DNA of 64,000 bases from Escherichia coli (GTDB lineage: Bacteria; Pseudomonadota; Gammaproteobacteria; Enterobacterales; Enterobacteriaceae). The notes under the pieces were generated by a model, which was not told where the DNA came from, searched no databases, and saw nothing but the letters and a program-made list of their open reading frames with translations. Positions 1-56,140 of this stretch are shown here, one piece after another. Each line of letters begins with the position of its first letter. Position 1 is the first letter of the stretch. Position numbers and translations under genes: made by a program. The DNA is taken from NCBI RefSeq assembly GCF_003334305.1, contig NZ_QOWS01000024.1. One strand, given 5' to 3'.

Positions 1-76
1 GGGTGATTAGCTCAGCTGGGAGAGCACCTCCCTTACAAGGAGGGGGTCGGCGGTTCGATCCCGTCATCACCCACCA
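1..76 (+). tRNA. tRNA-Val (anticodon UAC)
   Basis: 76-nt sequence GGGTGATTAGCTCAGCTGGGAGAGCACCTCCCTTACAAGGAGGGGGTCGGCGGTTCGATCCCGTCATCACCCACCA; anticodon loop CTTACAA; CCA end; matches E. coli tRNA-Val1 from memory. Confidence 0.9.
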
Positions 77-78
77 CC

Positions 79-154
79 GGGTCGTTAGCTCAGTTGGTAG
101 AGCAGTTGACTTTTAATCAATTGGTCGCAGGTTCGAATCCTGCACGACCCACCA
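79..154 (+). tRNA. tRNA-Lys (anticodon UUU)
   Basis: 76-nt sequence with anticodon loop CTTTTAA, T-arm GGTTCGAATCC, CCA end; 2-nt spacer from tRNA-Val as in the lys/val tRNA array. Confidence 0.9.
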
Positions 155-160
155 ATGTAA

Positions 161-187
161 AAAAGCGCCCTAAAGGCGCTTTTTTGC
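161..187 (+). terminator. rho-independent terminator after tRNA-Lys
   Basis: Hairpin AGCGCC-CTAAA-GGCGCT followed by a T-tract. Confidence 0.6.
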
Positions 188-293
188 TATCTGCGATACT
201 CAAAGATTCGAACCTGCAGCAGGTTTGAGTTGAGCGCAGCGAAACAACGGAGCCGCTCGCGGCGACGGCCCGAAGGGCGAGCGAAGCGAGTCA

Positions 294-346
294 TCCTGCA
301 CGACCCACCAATGTAAAAAAGCGCCCTAAAGGCGCTTTTTTGCTAT
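294..346 (+). repeat. direct repeat: second copy of tRNA-Lys 3' end plus terminator (copy of about 138..190)
   Basis: TCCTGCACGACCCACCAATGTAAAAAAGCGCCCTAAAGGCGCTTTTTTGCTAT occurs twice, about 156 bp apart; the second copy lacks the 5' part of a tRNA. Confidence 0.7.
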
Positions 347-1639: not shown

Positions 1640-2359
1640 ATGGATTTTTTTAGTGTGCAGAATATCCTGGTACATATACCAATAGGGGCAGGCGGTTATG
1701 ATCTCTCATGGATCGAAGCGGTAGGCACGATCGCCGGGTTGCTGTGTATTGGCCTTGCCAGTCTGGAGAAGATCAGCAACTACTTCTTTGGCCTGATCAA
1801 CGTCACCTTGTTTGGCATTATTTTCTTTCAGATTCAGCTGTATGCCAGCCTGCTATTACAGGTGTTTTTCTTTGCCGCGAATATTTACGGTTGGTATGCG
1901 TGGTCGCGACAAACCAGTCAGAACGAGGCGGAGTTGAAAATTCGCTGGTTGCCATTGCCGAAGGCACTCAGCTGGTTGGCGGTTTGCGTTGTTTCGATTG
2001 GTCTGATGACGGTATTTATCAATCCGGTGTTTGCATTTTTGACCCGCGTGGCAGTCATGATCATGCAAGCATTAGGATTACAGGTTGTGATGCCTGAACT
2101 GCAACCGGACGCTTTCCCGTTCTGGGATTCATGCATGATGGTGTTATCTATCGTGGCAATGATTCTGATGACGCGTAAGTATGTGGAAAACTGGCTGTTG
2201 TGGGTGATTATTAACGTGATTAGCGTCGTTATTTTTGCACTTCAGGGCGTTTACGCCATGTCTCTGGAGTACATCATCCTGACCTTTATTGCGCTCAACG
2301 GCAGCCGGATGTGGATCAACAGCGCACGTGAAAGAGGCTCACGCGCGCTGTCCCATTAA
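1640..2359 (+). CDS. pnuC: nicotinamide riboside transporter PnuC
   Basis: ORF track 239 aa, hydrophobic multi-TM protein; nadA-pnuC operon context. Confidence 0.92.
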
Positions 2360-3297
2360 TGGTGATGATGTGAATGGCCAGACACCCCTTCATTCAGGTG
2401 GCAGTCTGGCCCATGACAAGGTTGATATTCCATCTGAATGGTGGCGTGCTCAATCTGATAGTGATCCATCAGGTAGTGTTGGATCTGATCCAACAAGGCA
2501 TCGTGATCGTGTGGCGGGATCACCTGCACATGCAACGTCATCACCGGCTTCTCGCCTACCATCCATACATGTACATGGTGCACATTGCGGACTTCCGGGA
2601 TTTCCCGGCACATACGACGCTTCAGTTCAGCGATATCCAGCGATACCGGTGCACCTTCAAGTAATTCATTCACGCTATCTTTCAACAGTCGCCACGCGCT
2701 ACGCAGAACCAGAAGCGACACCAGTATCGAGAGAATGGGGTCAGCAGGTGTCCAGCCAGTCCAGATAATAATCAACGCGGCAATAATAGCCCCAACCGAA
2801 CCCAGCAGGTCCCCGAGCACATGCAGTGCCGCTGCTCGTACGTTGAGGTTTTTCTCTTCGCTGCCGTGATGAAGTAACCAGAAAGAAAGTATATTTGCCA
2901 GCAACCCAGCCACGGCAATTGCCATCATCATGCCGCCCTCGACCGGACGCGGCGTGCGGAAGCGTTCTATCGCCTCCCAGACAATCAAAATGGTAATTAC
3001 CACGAGGGCTATGGCATTCACAAACGCCGCGAGCGTGGTCAGTCTTAGCCAACCGAAAGTGTGGCGAATGGTGGGAGGACGACGTGAAAATTGCACGGCG
3101 AGTAGGGCGAAAAGCAGGGCGGCAGTATCGGTCAACATATGACCCGCATCGGCCAGCAATGCCAGAGAACCAGAAAGAAAACCACCAACGACTTCTACCA
3201 GCATAAACCCGGCAGTCACGCCGAAAGCATACAACAAGCGACGAGCATTATTATCTTCTGGCAGGTGTGAGGACGTGTGTGAGTGTGAGTGCGCCAT
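2356..3297 (-). CDS. zitB: zinc efflux transporter, cation diffusion facilitator family
   Basis: ORF track 313 aa, His-rich N-terminus [11 protein letters not shown] and C-terminal HSHHHH; convergent with pnuC and overlapping its end by 4 nt. Confidence 0.92.
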
Positions 3298-3410
3298 GAC
3301 GAGTCATCCCTTAATTATTCTCACTTAACTTTATGACATCATACTGCTTTTAGAAGTGAAAAATTAAAAGGGAGAGACTCCGCTCTCCCATTATTGGCTA
3401 TTTTGCAGGG

Positions 3411-3791
3411 TTACTGCGTGGTACCGTCGGTTTTGGTATCGACATCATTATTGATGCCATCACCGGTTTGTACCTTTTTATTGATATCCGGACAGCGACC
3501 ATCTTTGCACATGGTGTTCTTGTGCTCTTCATCTTTGGTCATTCCGTCATTGTTCATTGAAGAACCATCCGAATGCAGCATTGTGCCACCAGAACCGGTA
3601 TTTACCCCGTTATTGTCGACGTTATTTGGCGCGACATTTTCACGGGCGTCAGGGGCTACCTGGCCCGCATCAGCTGCGGCGTTTGCCTGGCCGTTATTAG
3701 TTTGCGCTCCGCTATCGGCAGCCAGTGCGGCACCGCTGGCAAGGCTTAGAGTGGCAGTCAGAAATAATGTGGCCAGTTTTGTCATTTTCAT
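3411..3791 (-). CDS. ybgS: secreted low-complexity protein YbgS
   Basis: ORF track 126 aa; signal peptide [24 protein letters not shown]; Asn/Gly/Asp/Thr-rich mature part. Confidence 0.85.
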
Positions 3792-4018
3792 AGGATGCTC
3801 CTGTTATGGTCGTTATGTCGGATAACCTCTTCCAACAGTGCATTTGCAGGTGAATATAAGGCATTGGTTTAAGATTTCAGCCAGGTTATGAAACGCAGCA
3901 GAGAATCTTGAAATAATTAACAAACAAAGGAGTTACAGTTAGAAATTGTAGGAGAGATCTCGTTTTTCGCGACAATCTGGCGTTTTTCTTGCTAATTCCA
4001 GGATTAATCCGTTCATAG

Positions 4019-4036
4019 TGTAAAACCCCGTTTACA
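4019..4036 (+). promoter_or_regulatory. TyrR box upstream of aroG
   Basis: TGTAAA-ACCCCG-TTTACA matches the TGTAAA-N6-TTTACA TyrR consensus, about 70 bp upstream of aroG. Confidence 0.55.
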
Positions 4037-4106
4037 CATTCTGACGGAAGATATAGATTGGAAGTATTGCATTCACTAAGATAAGTATGGCAACACTGGA
4101 ACAGAC

Positions 4107-5159
4107 ATGAATTATCAGAACGACGATTTACGCATCAAAGAAATCAAAGAGTTACTTCCTCCTGTCGCATTGCTGGAAAAATTCCCCGCTACTGAAAATG
4201 CCGCGAATACGGTTGCCCATGCCCGAAAAGCGATCCATAAGATCCTGAAAGGTAATGATGATCGCCTGTTGGTTGTGATTGGCCCATGCTCAATTCATGA
4301 TCCTGTCGCGGCAAAAGAGTATGCCACTCGCTTGCTGGCGCTGCGTGAAGAGCTGAAAGATGAGCTGGAAATCGTAATGCGCGTCTATTTTGAAAAGCCG
4401 CGTACCACGGTGGGCTGGAAAGGGCTGATTAACGATCCGCATATGGATAATAGCTTCCAGATCAACGACGGTCTGCGTATAGCCCGTAAATTGCTGCTTG
4501 ATATTAACGACAGCGGTCTGCCAGCGGCAGGTGAGTTTCTCGATATGATCACCCCACAATATCTCGCTGACCTGATGAGCTGGGGCGCAATTGGCGCACG
4601 TACCACCGAATCGCAGGTGCACCGCGAACTGGCATCAGGGCTTTCTTGTCCGGTCGGCTTCAAAAATGGCACCGACGGTACGATTAAAGTGGCTATCGAT
4701 GCCATTAATGCCGCCGGTGCGCCGCACTGCTTCCTGTCCGTAACGAAATGGGGGCATTCGGCGATTGTGAATACCAGCGGTAACGGCGATTGCCATATCA
4801 TTCTGCGCGGCGGTAAAGAGCCTAACTACAGCGCGAAGCACGTTGCTGAAGTGAAAGAAGGGCTGAACAAAGCAGGCCTGCCAGCACAGGTGATGATCGA
4901 TTTCAGCCATGCTAACTCGTCCAAACAATTCAACAAGCAGATGGATGTTTGTGCTGACGTTTGCCAGCAGATTGCCGGTGGCGAAAAGGCCATTATTGGC
5001 GTGATGGTGGAAAGCCATCTGGTGGAAGGCAATCAGAGCCTCGAGAGCGGGGAGCCGCTGGCCTACGGTAAGAGCATCACCGATGCCTGCATCGGCTGGG
5101 AAGATACCGATGCTCTGTTACGTCAACTGGCGAATGCAGTAAAAGCGCGTCGCGGGTAA
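4107..5159 (+). CDS. aroG: 3-deoxy-D-arabino-heptulosonate-7-phosphate synthase, Phe-sensitive
   Basis: ORF track 350 aa, MNYQNDDLRIKEIKELLPP; recognised as AroG. Confidence 0.95.
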   Translation: MNYQNDDLRIKEIKELLPPVALLEKFPATENAANTVAHARKAIHKILKGNDDRLLVVIGPCSIHDPVAAKEYATRLLALREELKDELEIVMRVYFEKPRTTVGWKGLINDPHMDNSFQINDGLRIARKLLLDINDSGLPAAGEFLDMITPQYLADLMSWGAIGARTTESQVHRELASGLSCPVGFKNGTDGTIKVAIDAINAAGAPHCFLSVTKWGHSAIVNTSGNGDCHIILRGGKEPNYSAKHVAEVKEGLNKAGLPAQVMIDFSHANSSKQFNKQMDVCADVCQQIAGGEKAIIGVMVESHLVEGNQSLESGEPLAYGKSITDACIGWEDTDALLRQLANAVKARRG

Positions 5160-35394: not shown

Positions 35395-35515
35395 CCACTA
35401 AACACTCTAGCCTCTGCACCTGGGTCAACTGATACGGTGCTTTGGCCGTGACAATGCTCGTAAAGATTGCCACCAGGGCGAAGGAAGAAATGACTTCGCC
35501 TCCCGTATCTGGAAA
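35395..35515 (+). promoter_or_regulatory. molybdenum cofactor (Moco) riboswitch in moaA leader
   Basis: Structured leader immediately upstream of moaA containing a CCUCCC element and GGAAAGG RBS; the E. coli moaA 5' UTR is known to carry the Moco RNA motif; boundaries approximate. Confidence 0.5.
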
Positions 35516-35522
35516 GGTGTAC

Positions 35523-36512
35523 ATGGCTTCACAACTGACTGATGCATTTGCGCGTAAGTTTTACTACTTGCGCCTGTCGATTACCGATGTGTGTAACTTT
35601 CGTTGCACCTACTGCCTGCCGGATGGCTACAAACCGAGCGGCGTCACCAATAAAGGCTTTCTTACCGTCGATGAAATTCGCCGGGTTACGCGCGCCTTCG
35701 CCAGTCTGGGCACCGAAAAAGTGCGCCTGACAGGCGGTGAGCCGTCTTTACGCCGCGACTTTACCGATATCATCGCCGCTGTGCGGGAAAACGACGCTAT
35801 CCGCCAGATTGCGGTCACCACCAATGGTTACCGTCTGGAACGCGATGTGGCGAACTGGCGCGATGCGGGACTTACTGGCATTAACGTCAGTGTCGACAGT
35901 CTGGACGCCCGCCAGTTTCACGCTATTACCGGGCAGGATAAATTCAACCAGGTCATGGCGGGGATTGATGCTGCATTTGAGGCCGGTTTTGAGAAGGTCA
36001 AAGTCAATACCGTGCTGATGCGTGATGTTAATCATCACCAGCTCGACACCTTTCTGAACTGGATCCAGCATCGCCCTATCCAGCTGCGTTTCATCGAACT
36101 GATGGAAACGGGCGAGGGCAGCGAGCTCTTCCGTAAGCATCACATCTCTGGTCAGGTTCTGCGTGACGAGCTACTGCGTCGCGGCTGGATCCACCAATTA
36201 CGTCAACGCAGCGACGGTCCCGCGCAAGTCTTTTGCCATCCAGATTACGCCGGAGAGATTGGCCTTATCATGCCGTATGAAAAAGACTTCTGCGCCACTT
36301 GCAACCGCCTGCGCGTTTCCTCCATTGGTAAACTCCATCTCTGCCTGTTTGGTGAAGGCGGCGTTAACCTGCGCGATCTGCTGGAAGACGATACCCAGCA
36401 ACAGGCGCTGGAAGCGCGTATTTCAGCGGCGCTGCGGGAGAAGAAACAGACCCATTTCCTGCATCAAAACAACACCGGTATTACGCAAAACTTATCGTAC
36501 ATTGGCGGCTAA
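35523..36512 (+). CDS. moaA: GTP 3',8-cyclase (radical SAM)
   Basis: ORF track 35442..36512; start trimmed to [31 protein letters not shown] (CxxxCxxC), 329 aa. Confidence 0.93.
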
Positions 36513-50767: not shown

Positions 50768-50866
<99 letters not shown>

Positions 50867-56029: not shown

Positions 56030-56140
56030 TAAACGCCTGATCCGTCCAACGGTTCGGATTTTGTAGGCCTGATAAGACGCGGTAGCGTCGCATCAGGCAT
56101 CTGTTGCCGGATGCGGCGTAAACGCCTTATCCGTCCTACG
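56030..56140. repeat. BIME/REP array
   Basis: Three REP-like palindromes (GCCTGATAAGACGCGG..CATCAGGC; GCCGGATGCGGCGTAAACGCCTTATCCG). Confidence 0.7.

Follow-up and report, generated by a model that had tools for sequence, protein, structure and literature searches.

YbgS of Escherichia coli, an exported stress protein of predicted disorder with a conserved cysteine loop

The gene located on the minus strand at positions 3411..3791 of the window, a stretch of 64,000 nucleotides of Escherichia coli DNA, is ybgS, a monocistronic and already catalogued core gene of the species, and its product is tentatively read here, with slightly less than even confidence, as a hydrophilin-like periplasmic stress protein. 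The coding sequence comprises 126 codons and a TAA stop (3411..3413), as given by the list of open reading frames, by Pfam and by the RefSeq annotation of identical DNA, and in that list the precursor has 126 amino acids. The four peptides quoted in the earlier note, CKDGRCPD among them, are all present in it. Pfam aligns residues 3-126 with positions 1-124 of the 124 of model PF13985 (YbgS; E 8.6e-62), the family of UniProt YbgS of E. coli K-12 (b0753), without differences. Several E. coli chromosomes carry the 807-bp ybgS region with 100% identity, and the gene, annotated as ybgS, 'YbgS-like family protein', is carried by 5426 of 5426 complete E. coli genomes. Its position between zitB, encoding a CDF zinc transporter (2356..3297, minus strand), and aroG (4107..5159, plus strand) is the same as in E. 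coli K-12, and its GC content (50%) differs little from the 52% of the whole window. Gene, family, export and stress regulation are all on record already, and no new entity is described. YbgS deserves attention as an abundant, strongly stress-induced small protein of the E. coli envelope without assigned function, whose apparent disorder is unusual for a periplasmic protein.

The precursor begins with a Sec-type signal peptide (residues 1-24, 3720..3791, minus strand) that starts with MKMTK, has the n-h-c layout and carries an AxA cleavage site, between ALA and AD; no lipobox Cys is present in its sequence. Secretion, read earlier from the sequence, is confirmed by published mass spectrometry: top-down MS/MS of the identical protein showed removal of exactly these 24 residues, the signal peptide being lost from the mature form (PMC8629258). 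The calculated mass of the mature protein, 10464.9 Da, equals the theoretical value tabulated in that paper for the oxidised form, whose ion was observed at m/z 10469, and among the host proteins that the paper calls 'high copy' in MALDI spectra YbgS stands with HdeA, HdeB and YahO (PMC8629258). Mature YbgS (residues 25-126; 102 amino acids, 10.46 kDa) is composed of N (14.7%), D (12.7%), G (12.7%), A (9.8%) and T (9.8%) as dominant residues, with N, G, D and T making up 50% of the chain, and contains two Cys and no F, W or Y; its GRAVY is -1.15 and its pI 4.4. The protein is acidic, with 16 D+E versus 8 K+R. The low-complexity composition, which had been singled out as unusual, is indeed extreme, since the N+G+D+T fraction of the precursor (0.44, against 0.215 +/- 0.053) lies about 4.4 SD above the mean of the 91 open reading frames of at least 100 amino acids from the same window and is the highest of all. 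No DNA tandem repeats were found in ybgS as a source of this bias.

Intrinsic disorder of YbgS is predicted by structural modelling. AlphaFold2 returned a mean pLDDT of 47 and a pTM of 0.11, with no secondary structure among the DSSP elements, from a shallow alignment of 23 sequences of close relatives, so that the low confidence supports disorder without proving it. In the Uversky charge-hydropathy analysis the mean hydropathy (0.372) falls below the boundary (0.441), which is the unfolded side; searched with a profile, the PDB gave 0 matches even at E = 10. Together these results support the disorder that the earlier note had suggested; the contrary outcome that it had named, a defined globular fold together with no association with metal or stress, is not what was found. 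They also bear on a legacy database label by which YbgS would be a 'homeobox' DNA-binding regulator, a reading to which we give practically no credence. What speaks for it is names only: 'Homeobox protein' in UniRef, 'putative homeobox protein' in one paper (PMC2634741) and treatment as a DNA-binding hub in another (PMC12282026). A regulator of this kind would have a homeodomain helix-turn-helix and a cytoplasmic location. It is refuted by the protein itself, as PF13985 remains the sole Pfam domain when matches up to E <= 10 are admitted, YbgS loses its signal peptide and is exported, and no helix is predicted.

The distribution of the family is restricted. A phmmer search of 1.84 billion representative proteins retrieved only 61 YbgS clusters, many of them fragments, and no sign of any other related family; every cluster with a named organism belongs to Enterobacterales, the named homologues coming from Citrobacter, Enterobacter, Klebsiella, Salmonella, Cedecea, Pantoea, Erwinia, Rahnella, Nissabacter and Sodalis. 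A profile of the core around the Cys loop gave 50 matches, 49 of them fragments of PF13985 and the remaining one a 29-residue fragment without a Pfam domain. By these searches YbgS appears as a narrow orphan family. The range of the Rcs system is likewise Enterobacterales. A class II microcin or bacteriocin, which would have a double-glycine leader, genes for a dedicated exporter and for immunity, and a place in the accessory genome, was considered as well and rejected: YbgS has a Sec signal peptide, is encoded by a core gene present in 5426/5426 genomes with housekeeping neighbours, and its sole match to a bacteriocin family has an E of 0.35.

An alignment (A2) of 23 members of the family, drawn from several named genera and from metagenomic sequences, divides the mature protein into conserved and variable segments, and shows an architecture of conserved short motifs flanking a length-variable linker. 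The N-terminal block (residues 31-66; 3594..3701, minus strand), NNGxANxxAxAG..AP.A..N.APNNVDN..IN, contains the invariant residues N37, P55 and N64 and the nearly invariant N33 and G34. It is followed by a low-complexity linker rich in G, S, T and N (residues 67-83; 3543..3593, minus strand; alignments A1 and A2), whose length differs by genus, being nearly absent in P0130, a cluster named Cedecea, and much longer in P0126 and P0127. The linker has the highest dN of all segments, 0.76 against Enterobacter and 1.14 against Pantoea, whereas the values for the core are 0.20 and 0.36. This conserved core (residues 84-108; 3468..3542, minus strand; A2 and A6) reads M(T/S)KDE.[HD]KN..CKDG(R/K)CPD.NKKV; K91, K96 and P101 are nearly invariant and position 90 holds either H or D throughout. 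Within it lies the Cys loop C95-K-D-G-R-C100 (3492..3509, minus strand), in which C95, D97, G98 and C100 are invariant (A2). The C-terminal tail (residues 109-126; 3414..3467, minus strand) ends in the conserved TKTDGT(T/S)Q (A2) and has a dN of 0.00-0.17 over four comparisons. A dN of about 0.10 against Citrobacter with saturated synonymous sites indicates purifying selection, and the indel alleles of ybgS in E. coli are all located N-terminal of the Cys loop.

A Cys pair in the periplasm is expected to be oxidised by DsbA. The mass spectrometric data agree with this expectation: an intramolecular disulfide between C95 and C100 (C71 and C76 in the mature numbering) was inferred from MS/MS fragmentation (PMC8629258), and the loop of YbgS is probably closed by it, as judged from this one paper. 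The two invariant cysteines have been given another meaning in a study of plasmid cost in Salmonella, which proposed that YbgS is a redox or antioxidant protein and grouped ybgS with ahpC among mutated 'oxidative stress' genes (PMC9599605); up-regulation of ybgS under oxidative stress in a meta-analysis (PMC9501238) goes in the same direction. We consider a redox role very improbable. A thioredoxin fold would have a CxxC, whereas the cysteines of YbgS are spaced as C-x4-C and lie in a chain of predicted disorder, and the profile search of the PDB gave no fold match; the proposal is speculation only in its source paper (PMC9599605), and a structural disulfide in the oxidising periplasm is a simpler reason for the conservation of the pair.

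The earlier note had taken the composition of YbgS as a sign of a disordered or metal-binding polypeptide and had pointed to the zinc exporter gene next to ybgS. In its full form this reading makes YbgS a periplasmic buffer of Zn, Ca or Cu linked to ZitB, with ligands provided by the Asp and Asn residues or by [H/D]90-C95-D97-C100. The protein is acidic and rich in Asp and Asn; residue 90 together with C95, D97 and C100, all conserved, would give four possible ligands if the cysteines were reduced, the disulfide having been inferred from fragmentation without direct demonstration; and ybgS adjoins zitB in Escherichia, Citrobacter, Enterobacter and Rahnella. Nevertheless, other features of the protein speak against it. 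Its invariant residues are N, P, N, C, D, G and C, with no cluster of His, Glu or Asp among them and no conserved His/Met/Glu cluster in the 23 sequences of A2; the cysteines are reported as a disulfide; and of the only two His of the mature form, H73 is not conserved. An EF-hand-like calcium loop of 12 residues (78-89) was rejected, as its ligand positions vary across the family.

The neighbourhood argues in the same sense. Downstream of ybgS a Rho-independent terminator (3360..3389, minus strand), GGGAGAG-CGGAGT-CTCTCCC followed by TTTTAATTTTT, was found by a terminator scan; it lies 22 nt past the ybgS stop, before zitB starts at 3297. Six genera retain the hairpin, with compensatory double changes in 3 of 8 pairs, and such a covarying terminator indicates that ybgS is its own transcription unit. 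In Pantoea a two-component system is inserted between the two genes, and in one genome assembly of Sodalis endolongispinus ybgS is kept with no zitB called beside it. Moreover, the synteny extends over a wider block, aroG-ybgS-zitB-pnuC-nadA, and because it reaches aroG, pnuC and nadA the adjacency of ybgS and zitB reflects a conserved block and not a functional pair. An accessory coupled to ZitB would be co-transcribed or co-regulated with it; here a terminator separates the genes and the regulators of ybgS are RpoS and RcsB, its control being through RpoS, Rcs and osmolarity. Of 8 papers naming both ybgS and zinc, none presents itself by its title or the opening of its abstract as a study of the zinc response. 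Hence neither the metal binding nor the significance given earlier to the zitB neighbourhood found support, and a metal-binding YbgS is judged improbable.

The association with envelope and general stress, in turn, was already published. Expression of ybgS is RpoS-dependent (PMC2907692), and the gene belongs to the Crl regulon (PMC6469107), to an osmolarity-induced class (PMC2634741) and to the known targets of RcsB (PMC3631615). An inhibitor of LolCDE, which blocks lipoprotein transport to the outer membrane, raises its expression 15- to 32-fold (PMC5105897) and the organic acid acrylic acid 5.4-fold (PMC6699081), and it is a hub within the set of genes that multiple stressors induce (PMC9501238). 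In the DNA, the Shine-Dalgarno AGGAG (3798..3802, minus strand) is placed 6 nt before the ATG, and alignment A3 shows ACAGGAGCA conserved across E. coli, Citrobacter, Enterobacter and Pantoea. The divergent ybgS-aroG intergenic region of 315 bp (3792..4106, given for the minus strand), analysed by alignment A3, a promoter scan and the sequence, includes a conserved ybgS leader (about 3792..3845, minus strand) and a candidate sigma-S-like -10 element, CTACAAT (3945..3951, minus strand), which lies in a conserved CTACAAT/CTAGACT block. A sigma-70-like site predicted by the promoter scan (3880..3853, minus strand) is not conserved in Citrobacter. The same spacer holds the TyrR box of aroG (4019..4036), and an RpoN gSELEX peak falls in it (PMC8743547). 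The promoter scan, A3 and the sequence allowed no confident assignment of an RcsB box upstream of ybgS, and in a scan of 3200..4200 against Rfam the sole match, to MicX (E 0.37), was at chance level.

Taking into account the export, composition, predicted disorder and regulation of YbgS, we propose that it would be an abundant, heavily hydrated and non-folding polypeptide. On water loss from the envelope or damage to it, YbgS would accumulate in the periplasm and protect envelope proteins and surfaces from aggregation or collapse; its conserved motifs, the Cys loop above all, would be contact points and not a catalytic or metal centre. Hydrophilins are defined by a Gly content above 6% and a hydrophilicity index above 1 (Garay-Arroyo et al. 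2000, as quoted in PMC3983491). They are further expected to accumulate under water deficit and to protect enzymes during dehydration; for ybgS, osmotic induction is reported (PMC2634741). Gly accounts for 12.7% of mature YbgS and 11.1% of the precursor. The index is 1.15 for the mature protein and 0.71 for the whole precursor; only the mature form passes the threshold, and the value of the precursor stands against a hydrophilin role. The literature on YbgS records neither a protective activity nor a binding partner, and no stress phenotype upon loss of function; the one effect of a deletion that was found comes from Salmonella, where plasmid cost is slightly relieved (PMC9599605).

A purely entropic or hydration function needs neither an invariant Cys-x4-Cys nor N37, P55 and N64, and the invariance of the loop and of these three residues argues for specific recognition. 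YbgS could accordingly be a specific ligand or adaptor, whose disordered chain displays the disulfide-closed CKDGRC turn, the NNG..VDN..IN block and the TKTDGTTQ tail to one defined partner in the envelope and regulates or protects it under stress. The partner might be a protease, an outer-membrane protein, a peptidoglycan enzyme or a sensor, perhaps one from the Rcs pathway. The adaptor model is a possible reading, if a rather doubtful one. It would account for the invariance of C95, D97, G98, C100, N37, P55 and N64 and the near-invariance of K91, K96 and P101 in 23 sequences, while the linker between the motifs is free to vary in length and sequence and the indel alleles of E. coli spare the loop; the core module is found only in the YbgS family, and the family is limited to Enterobacterales, the order with the Rcs system that controls ybgS. 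However, the literature records no partner, the high abundance reported in stationary phase is easier to reconcile with a bulk role than with a stoichiometric regulator, and apart from the housekeeping aroG and zitB there is no conserved neighbour to suggest a partner. A more ambitious version of the hydrophilin reading, which we regard as unlikely, takes YbgS as the founding periplasmic hydrophilin, a disordered envelope protectant specific to Enterobacterales whose disulfide-closed CKDGRC turn docks on an envelope target or feeds back on the Rcs pathway. If true, disorder-based stress protection would be a feature of the Gram-negative periplasm.

For YbgS, export, composition, predicted disorder, control by RpoS and Rcs and independence from zitB are solid; metal binding, a redox role and the 'homeobox' label that misleads some papers are not. 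The invariant CKDGRC loop is the obvious starting point for mutagenesis.

Several known systems resemble YbgS in part. SilE and PcoE are small, Sec-exported periplasmic proteins that are disordered without ligand; they have many conserved His/Met motifs and are encoded in metal-inducible operons. In YbgS there are 2 His and 4 Met, all poorly conserved, and its gene has a terminator of its own and is regulated by stress and not by metal. A His/Met sponge of that kind was rejected, H73 and M94 being variable and the MLH motif limited to close relatives. The MXKDX pentapeptide repeat proteins (NCBIfam TIGR02953) are small and secreted, as is YbgS. Instead of an array, YbgS has two M-x-K-D units only, MTKDE and MCKDG, 10 residues apart, and the Met of the second is not conserved across the family. 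Two such pentapeptides are unlikely by composition (P = 2.6e-4); the model itself matches residues 78-116 weakly, with 12.6 bits (E 0.098) against a curated cutoff of 41, and YbgS is not a member.

With OsmY, OsmB, Bdm, Ivy and YahO, small envelope stress proteins of the RpoS and Rcs regulons, YbgS shares co-induction by the LolCDE inhibitor, osmotic stress and stationary phase, and it is seen together with YahO, HdeA and HdeB among the prominent small proteins. It has no sequence similarity to OsmY, OsmB, Bdm, Ivy or YahO and appears unfolded and soluble, whereas OsmB is a lipoprotein and a folded structure is found in Ivy and, with BON domains, in OsmY. The hydrophilins or LEA-like proteins, such as E. 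coli YciG, share with mature YbgS a Gly content above 6%, an index above 1, predicted disorder, RpoS dependence and osmotic induction. YbgS differs from them in being rich in Asn, Asp, Gly and Thr and not in Lys, Glu and Gly, in having an invariant disulfide loop, and in lacking sequence homology to them. Hydrophilins such as YciG are cytoplasmic; YbgS, unlike them, goes to the periplasm.

The ybgS gene is a 126-codon open reading frame on the minus strand at 3411..3791, exactly where the earlier note placed it, and its product contains all four peptides quoted there. It is flanked by zitB (2356..3297, minus) and aroG (4107..5159, plus) in the order nadA, pnuC, zitB, ybgS, aroG, gpmA, galM, galK, galT. 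Several E. coli chromosomes are 100% identical to an 807-bp query comprising the ORF and its flanks, and the region is present in 5426 of 5426 complete E. coli genomes, annotated as ybgS, 'YbgS-like family protein'. The feature belongs to PF13985 (YbgS), its single Pfam match (full length, E 8.6e-62), while NCBIfam holds no family for it, the best matches being at chance level. The gene is already on record, with no function assigned, and is of low to moderate interest. An antisense ORF of 143 aa at 3394..3825 (plus) covers all of ybgS and was taken for the shadow of an Asn/Gly/Asp-rich gene, with no sign of coding. Elsewhere, an Rfam scan of the whole window placed two tRNAs, with an RtT element behind them, at the left end (1..310, plus), and detected a Moco (molybdenum cofactor) riboswitch at 35391..35535 (plus), naRNA4 at 56066..56136 (minus) and two ES036 elements at 34085..34126 and 50789..50831 (both minus).

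Removal of the 24-residue signal peptide leaves a mature protein of 102 residues, of which Asn makes up 14.7%, Asp and Gly 12.7% each, and Ala and Thr 9.8% each. It has two Cys, lacks aromatic Phe, Trp and Tyr, and has a computed GRAVY of -1.15 and pI of 4.4. The N+G+D+T fraction is 0.44 in the precursor and 0.50 in the mature form, against a mean of 0.215 +/- 0.053 over the 91 window ORFs of at least 100 aa, of which ybgS is the highest; the unusual low-complexity composition previously noticed is thus real, and the bias is beyond chance. The GC content of the gene is ordinary, and a search within it for a DNA tandem repeat underlying the bias found none. Two M-x-K-D pentapeptides, MTKDE and MCKDG, are spaced by 10 residues (3492..3542, residues 84-100), a pair improbable from composition (P = 2.6e-4, shuffles); for the MXKDX pentapeptide repeat family TIGR02953, however, the protein reaches a weak 12.6 bits where 41 are required, and it is not a member. 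Recorded with that segment (3492..3542) are seven [N/D]-G dipeptides versus 3.6 expected (P = 0.03). Such dipeptides favour turns and isoaspartate formation.

YbgS constitutes a narrow orphan family whose internal organisation is clear. When 1.84 billion representative proteins were searched in full with HMMER, only 61 clusters emerged, many fragmentary, and the named members are all Enterobacterales (Escherichia, Citrobacter, Pseudocitrobacter, Enterobacter, Klebsiella, Salmonella, Cedecea, Pantoea, Erwinia, Rahnella, Nissabacter and Sodalis). Two family alignments, one of 23 members, resolve five segments. Behind the signal peptide comes a conserved N-terminal stretch, residues 31-66, in which N37, P55 and N64 never vary, and then a linker rich in G, S, T and N that is near-absent in some genera and far longer than that of E. 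coli in others. The fourth segment is a conserved core, M(T/S)KDE.[H/D]KN..CKDG(R/K)CPD.NKKV, with C95, D97, G98 and C100 invariant, and the fifth a conserved C-terminal motif, TKTDGT(T/S)Q. A core-only profile had 50 matches, 49 of them PF13985 YbgS fragments and one a 29-residue fragment devoid of Pfam domains, so that within the reach of the search the core module is absent from other protein contexts. Comparisons across genera find synonymous sites saturated and a dN of about 0.10 versus Citrobacter; the linker evolves fastest (dN 0.76 versus Enterobacter, 1.14 versus Pantoea), compared with 0.20 and 0.36 for the core and 0.10 and 0.17 for the tail. Hence the protein is under purifying selection, acting on the motifs more than on the spacer. 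Rare in-frame indel alleles between short direct repeats (variants P0003, P0004, P0005, P0007, P0011 and P0015, two of them named E. coli) include duplications of GQANAAADA and SGAALAAD and deletions of NNVD and DGSSMNN. Every one of these indels (3414..3719) falls on the N-terminal side of the Cys loop; slippage is tolerated by the low-complexity part and not by the core. This motif-linker-motif anatomy is one useful outcome of the analysis.

Export of YbgS is an experimental fact. Top-down MALDI-TOF-TOF of E. coli O104:H4 identified exactly the mature sequence, the 24-residue signal peptide being cleaved at ALA|AD, and fragmentation pointed to an intramolecular disulfide joining the two cysteines (PMC8629258). 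The theoretical mass of the oxidised form, 10464.9 Da (ion seen at m/z 10469), equals the mass computed here, and that study places YbgS with HdeA, HdeB and YahO among the 'high copy' conserved host proteins of such spectra (PMC8629258). A redox role for this Cys pair seems very improbable. The mature chain is predicted to be intrinsically disordered, a view supported by AlphaFold2 on the shallow 23-sequence family alignment (mean pLDDT 47, pTM 0.11, zero secondary-structure elements), by charge-hydropathy on the natively unfolded side (H 0.372 versus a boundary of 0.441) and by a family profile search that retrieved no related solved structure even at E = 10. The legacy name 'homeobox protein' persists in UniRef, and a 2025 proteomics paper building on it treats YbgS as a DNA-binding hub (PMC12282026); the label is refuted by PF13985 as sole domain, by export and by zero predicted helix. 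YbgS is not a microcin either.

The earlier note also suggested metal binding and pointed to the neighbouring zinc exporter gene zitB; neither the metal role nor a meaning of that neighbour was borne out. Conserved residues make no His/Glu/Asp cluster, an EF-hand-like 12-residue stretch is not conserved in either alignment, and of 8 papers naming both ybgS and zinc, none is by its title and abstract opening a zinc-response study. Metal buffering tied to ZitB is improbable. One point in favour of a metal site remains: residue 90 is H or D throughout and might form a small site with C95, D97 and C100 if the cysteines were reduced, but the periplasmic location and the MS data favour the disulfide (PMC8629258). 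Nor is YbgS a SilE/PcoE-type sponge. As for zitB, a canonical intrinsic terminator (3389..3360, GGGAGAG-CGGAGT-CTCTCCC plus a T-run) lies 22 nt past the ybgS stop; its hairpin is also found in Citrobacter, Enterobacter, Rahnella and Pantoea, with double (compensatory) changes preserving 3 of 8 pairs. This conservation argues that ybgS is a transcription unit of its own, in agreement with its tabulation as a single-gene operon (PMC2634741). The adjacency is old, as gene order in Rahnella shows (aroG<>ybgS>zitB<pnuC<nadA), yet it belongs to a larger conserved block, and ybgS and zitB are separable. In Pantoea (L004 5459..9123) genes for a response regulator (Response_reg + GerE) and for a hybrid histidine kinase of 1031 aa are inserted between them, the Sodalis endolongispinus genome retains ybgS with no zitB called beside it, and a second Sodalis-cluster contig carries merely a truncated CDF gene there. 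Evidence for this independence is a further useful outcome.

The stress association is real and had already been published. ybgS is RpoS-dependent in O157:H7 (PMC2907692), belongs to the Crl regulon (PMC6469107), is osmolarity-induced and reduced in a stationary-phase hupAB mutant (PMC2634741) and, like bdm, is called a 'known target gene of the RcsB response regulator' (PMC3631615). It rises 15- and 32-fold with a LolCDE inhibitor, along with osmB, bdm, ivy and colanic acid genes (PMC5105897), and 5.4-fold with acrylic acid (PMC6699081); it is a hub of multi-stressor-induced genes (PMC9501238) and is listed as up-regulated in UPEC (fold change 4.3; PMC9239202). An OmpR regulon study in Klebsiella found a homologue to be differentially expressed (PMC10783089), Salmonella bears a slightly lower cost of an IncHI2 plasmid once the gene is deleted (PMC9599605), and an RpoN gSELEX peak lies within the ybgS-aroG spacer (PMC8743547). 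Upstream (3792..3951, minus), E. coli, Citrobacter and Enterobacter are near-identical over some 50 nt ahead of the ATG. About 150 nt upstream, at 3945..3951, the conserved block CTACAAT/CTAGACT is a candidate sigma-S-type -10 element; conservation of a predicted sigma-70-like site (3880..3853) does not extend to Citrobacter. The spacer also holds a TyrR box, TGTAAA-N6-TTTACA (4019..4036), complete in E. coli, Citrobacter and Rahnella, with its TGTAAA half invariant in 7 of 7 aligned genera; presumably it serves TyrR control of aroG rather than ybgS.

Overall, the original observation on YbgS is confirmed, and its interpretation holds for disorder and stress and fails for metal and zitB. The present data and the cited papers show an acidic protein that is exported by Sec, processed and described as 'high copy'; it is predicted to be disordered and is expressed from its own transcription unit under sigma-S and Rcs control. 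Since its mature form, though not the precursor, has the composition that defines hydrophilins (Gly >6%, hydrophilicity index >1) and its inducing signals would be of the water-deficit and envelope-damage type, the role that we tentatively prefer for YbgS is that of a hydrophilin, or 'molecular shield', of the periplasm, in which the conserved motifs may act as contact points. The strongest rival, which we regard as rather unlikely, is that the disordered chain only displays short linear motifs, chiefly the CKDGRC turn, to a single, specific partner in the envelope; that the loop is invariant speaks for it, but the reported abundance of YbgS and the absence of a candidate partner do not. As a putative shield, YbgS has no sequence homology to the known hydrophilins, yet these are the proteins it would most resemble in its mode of working, and it differs from them in being periplasmic.
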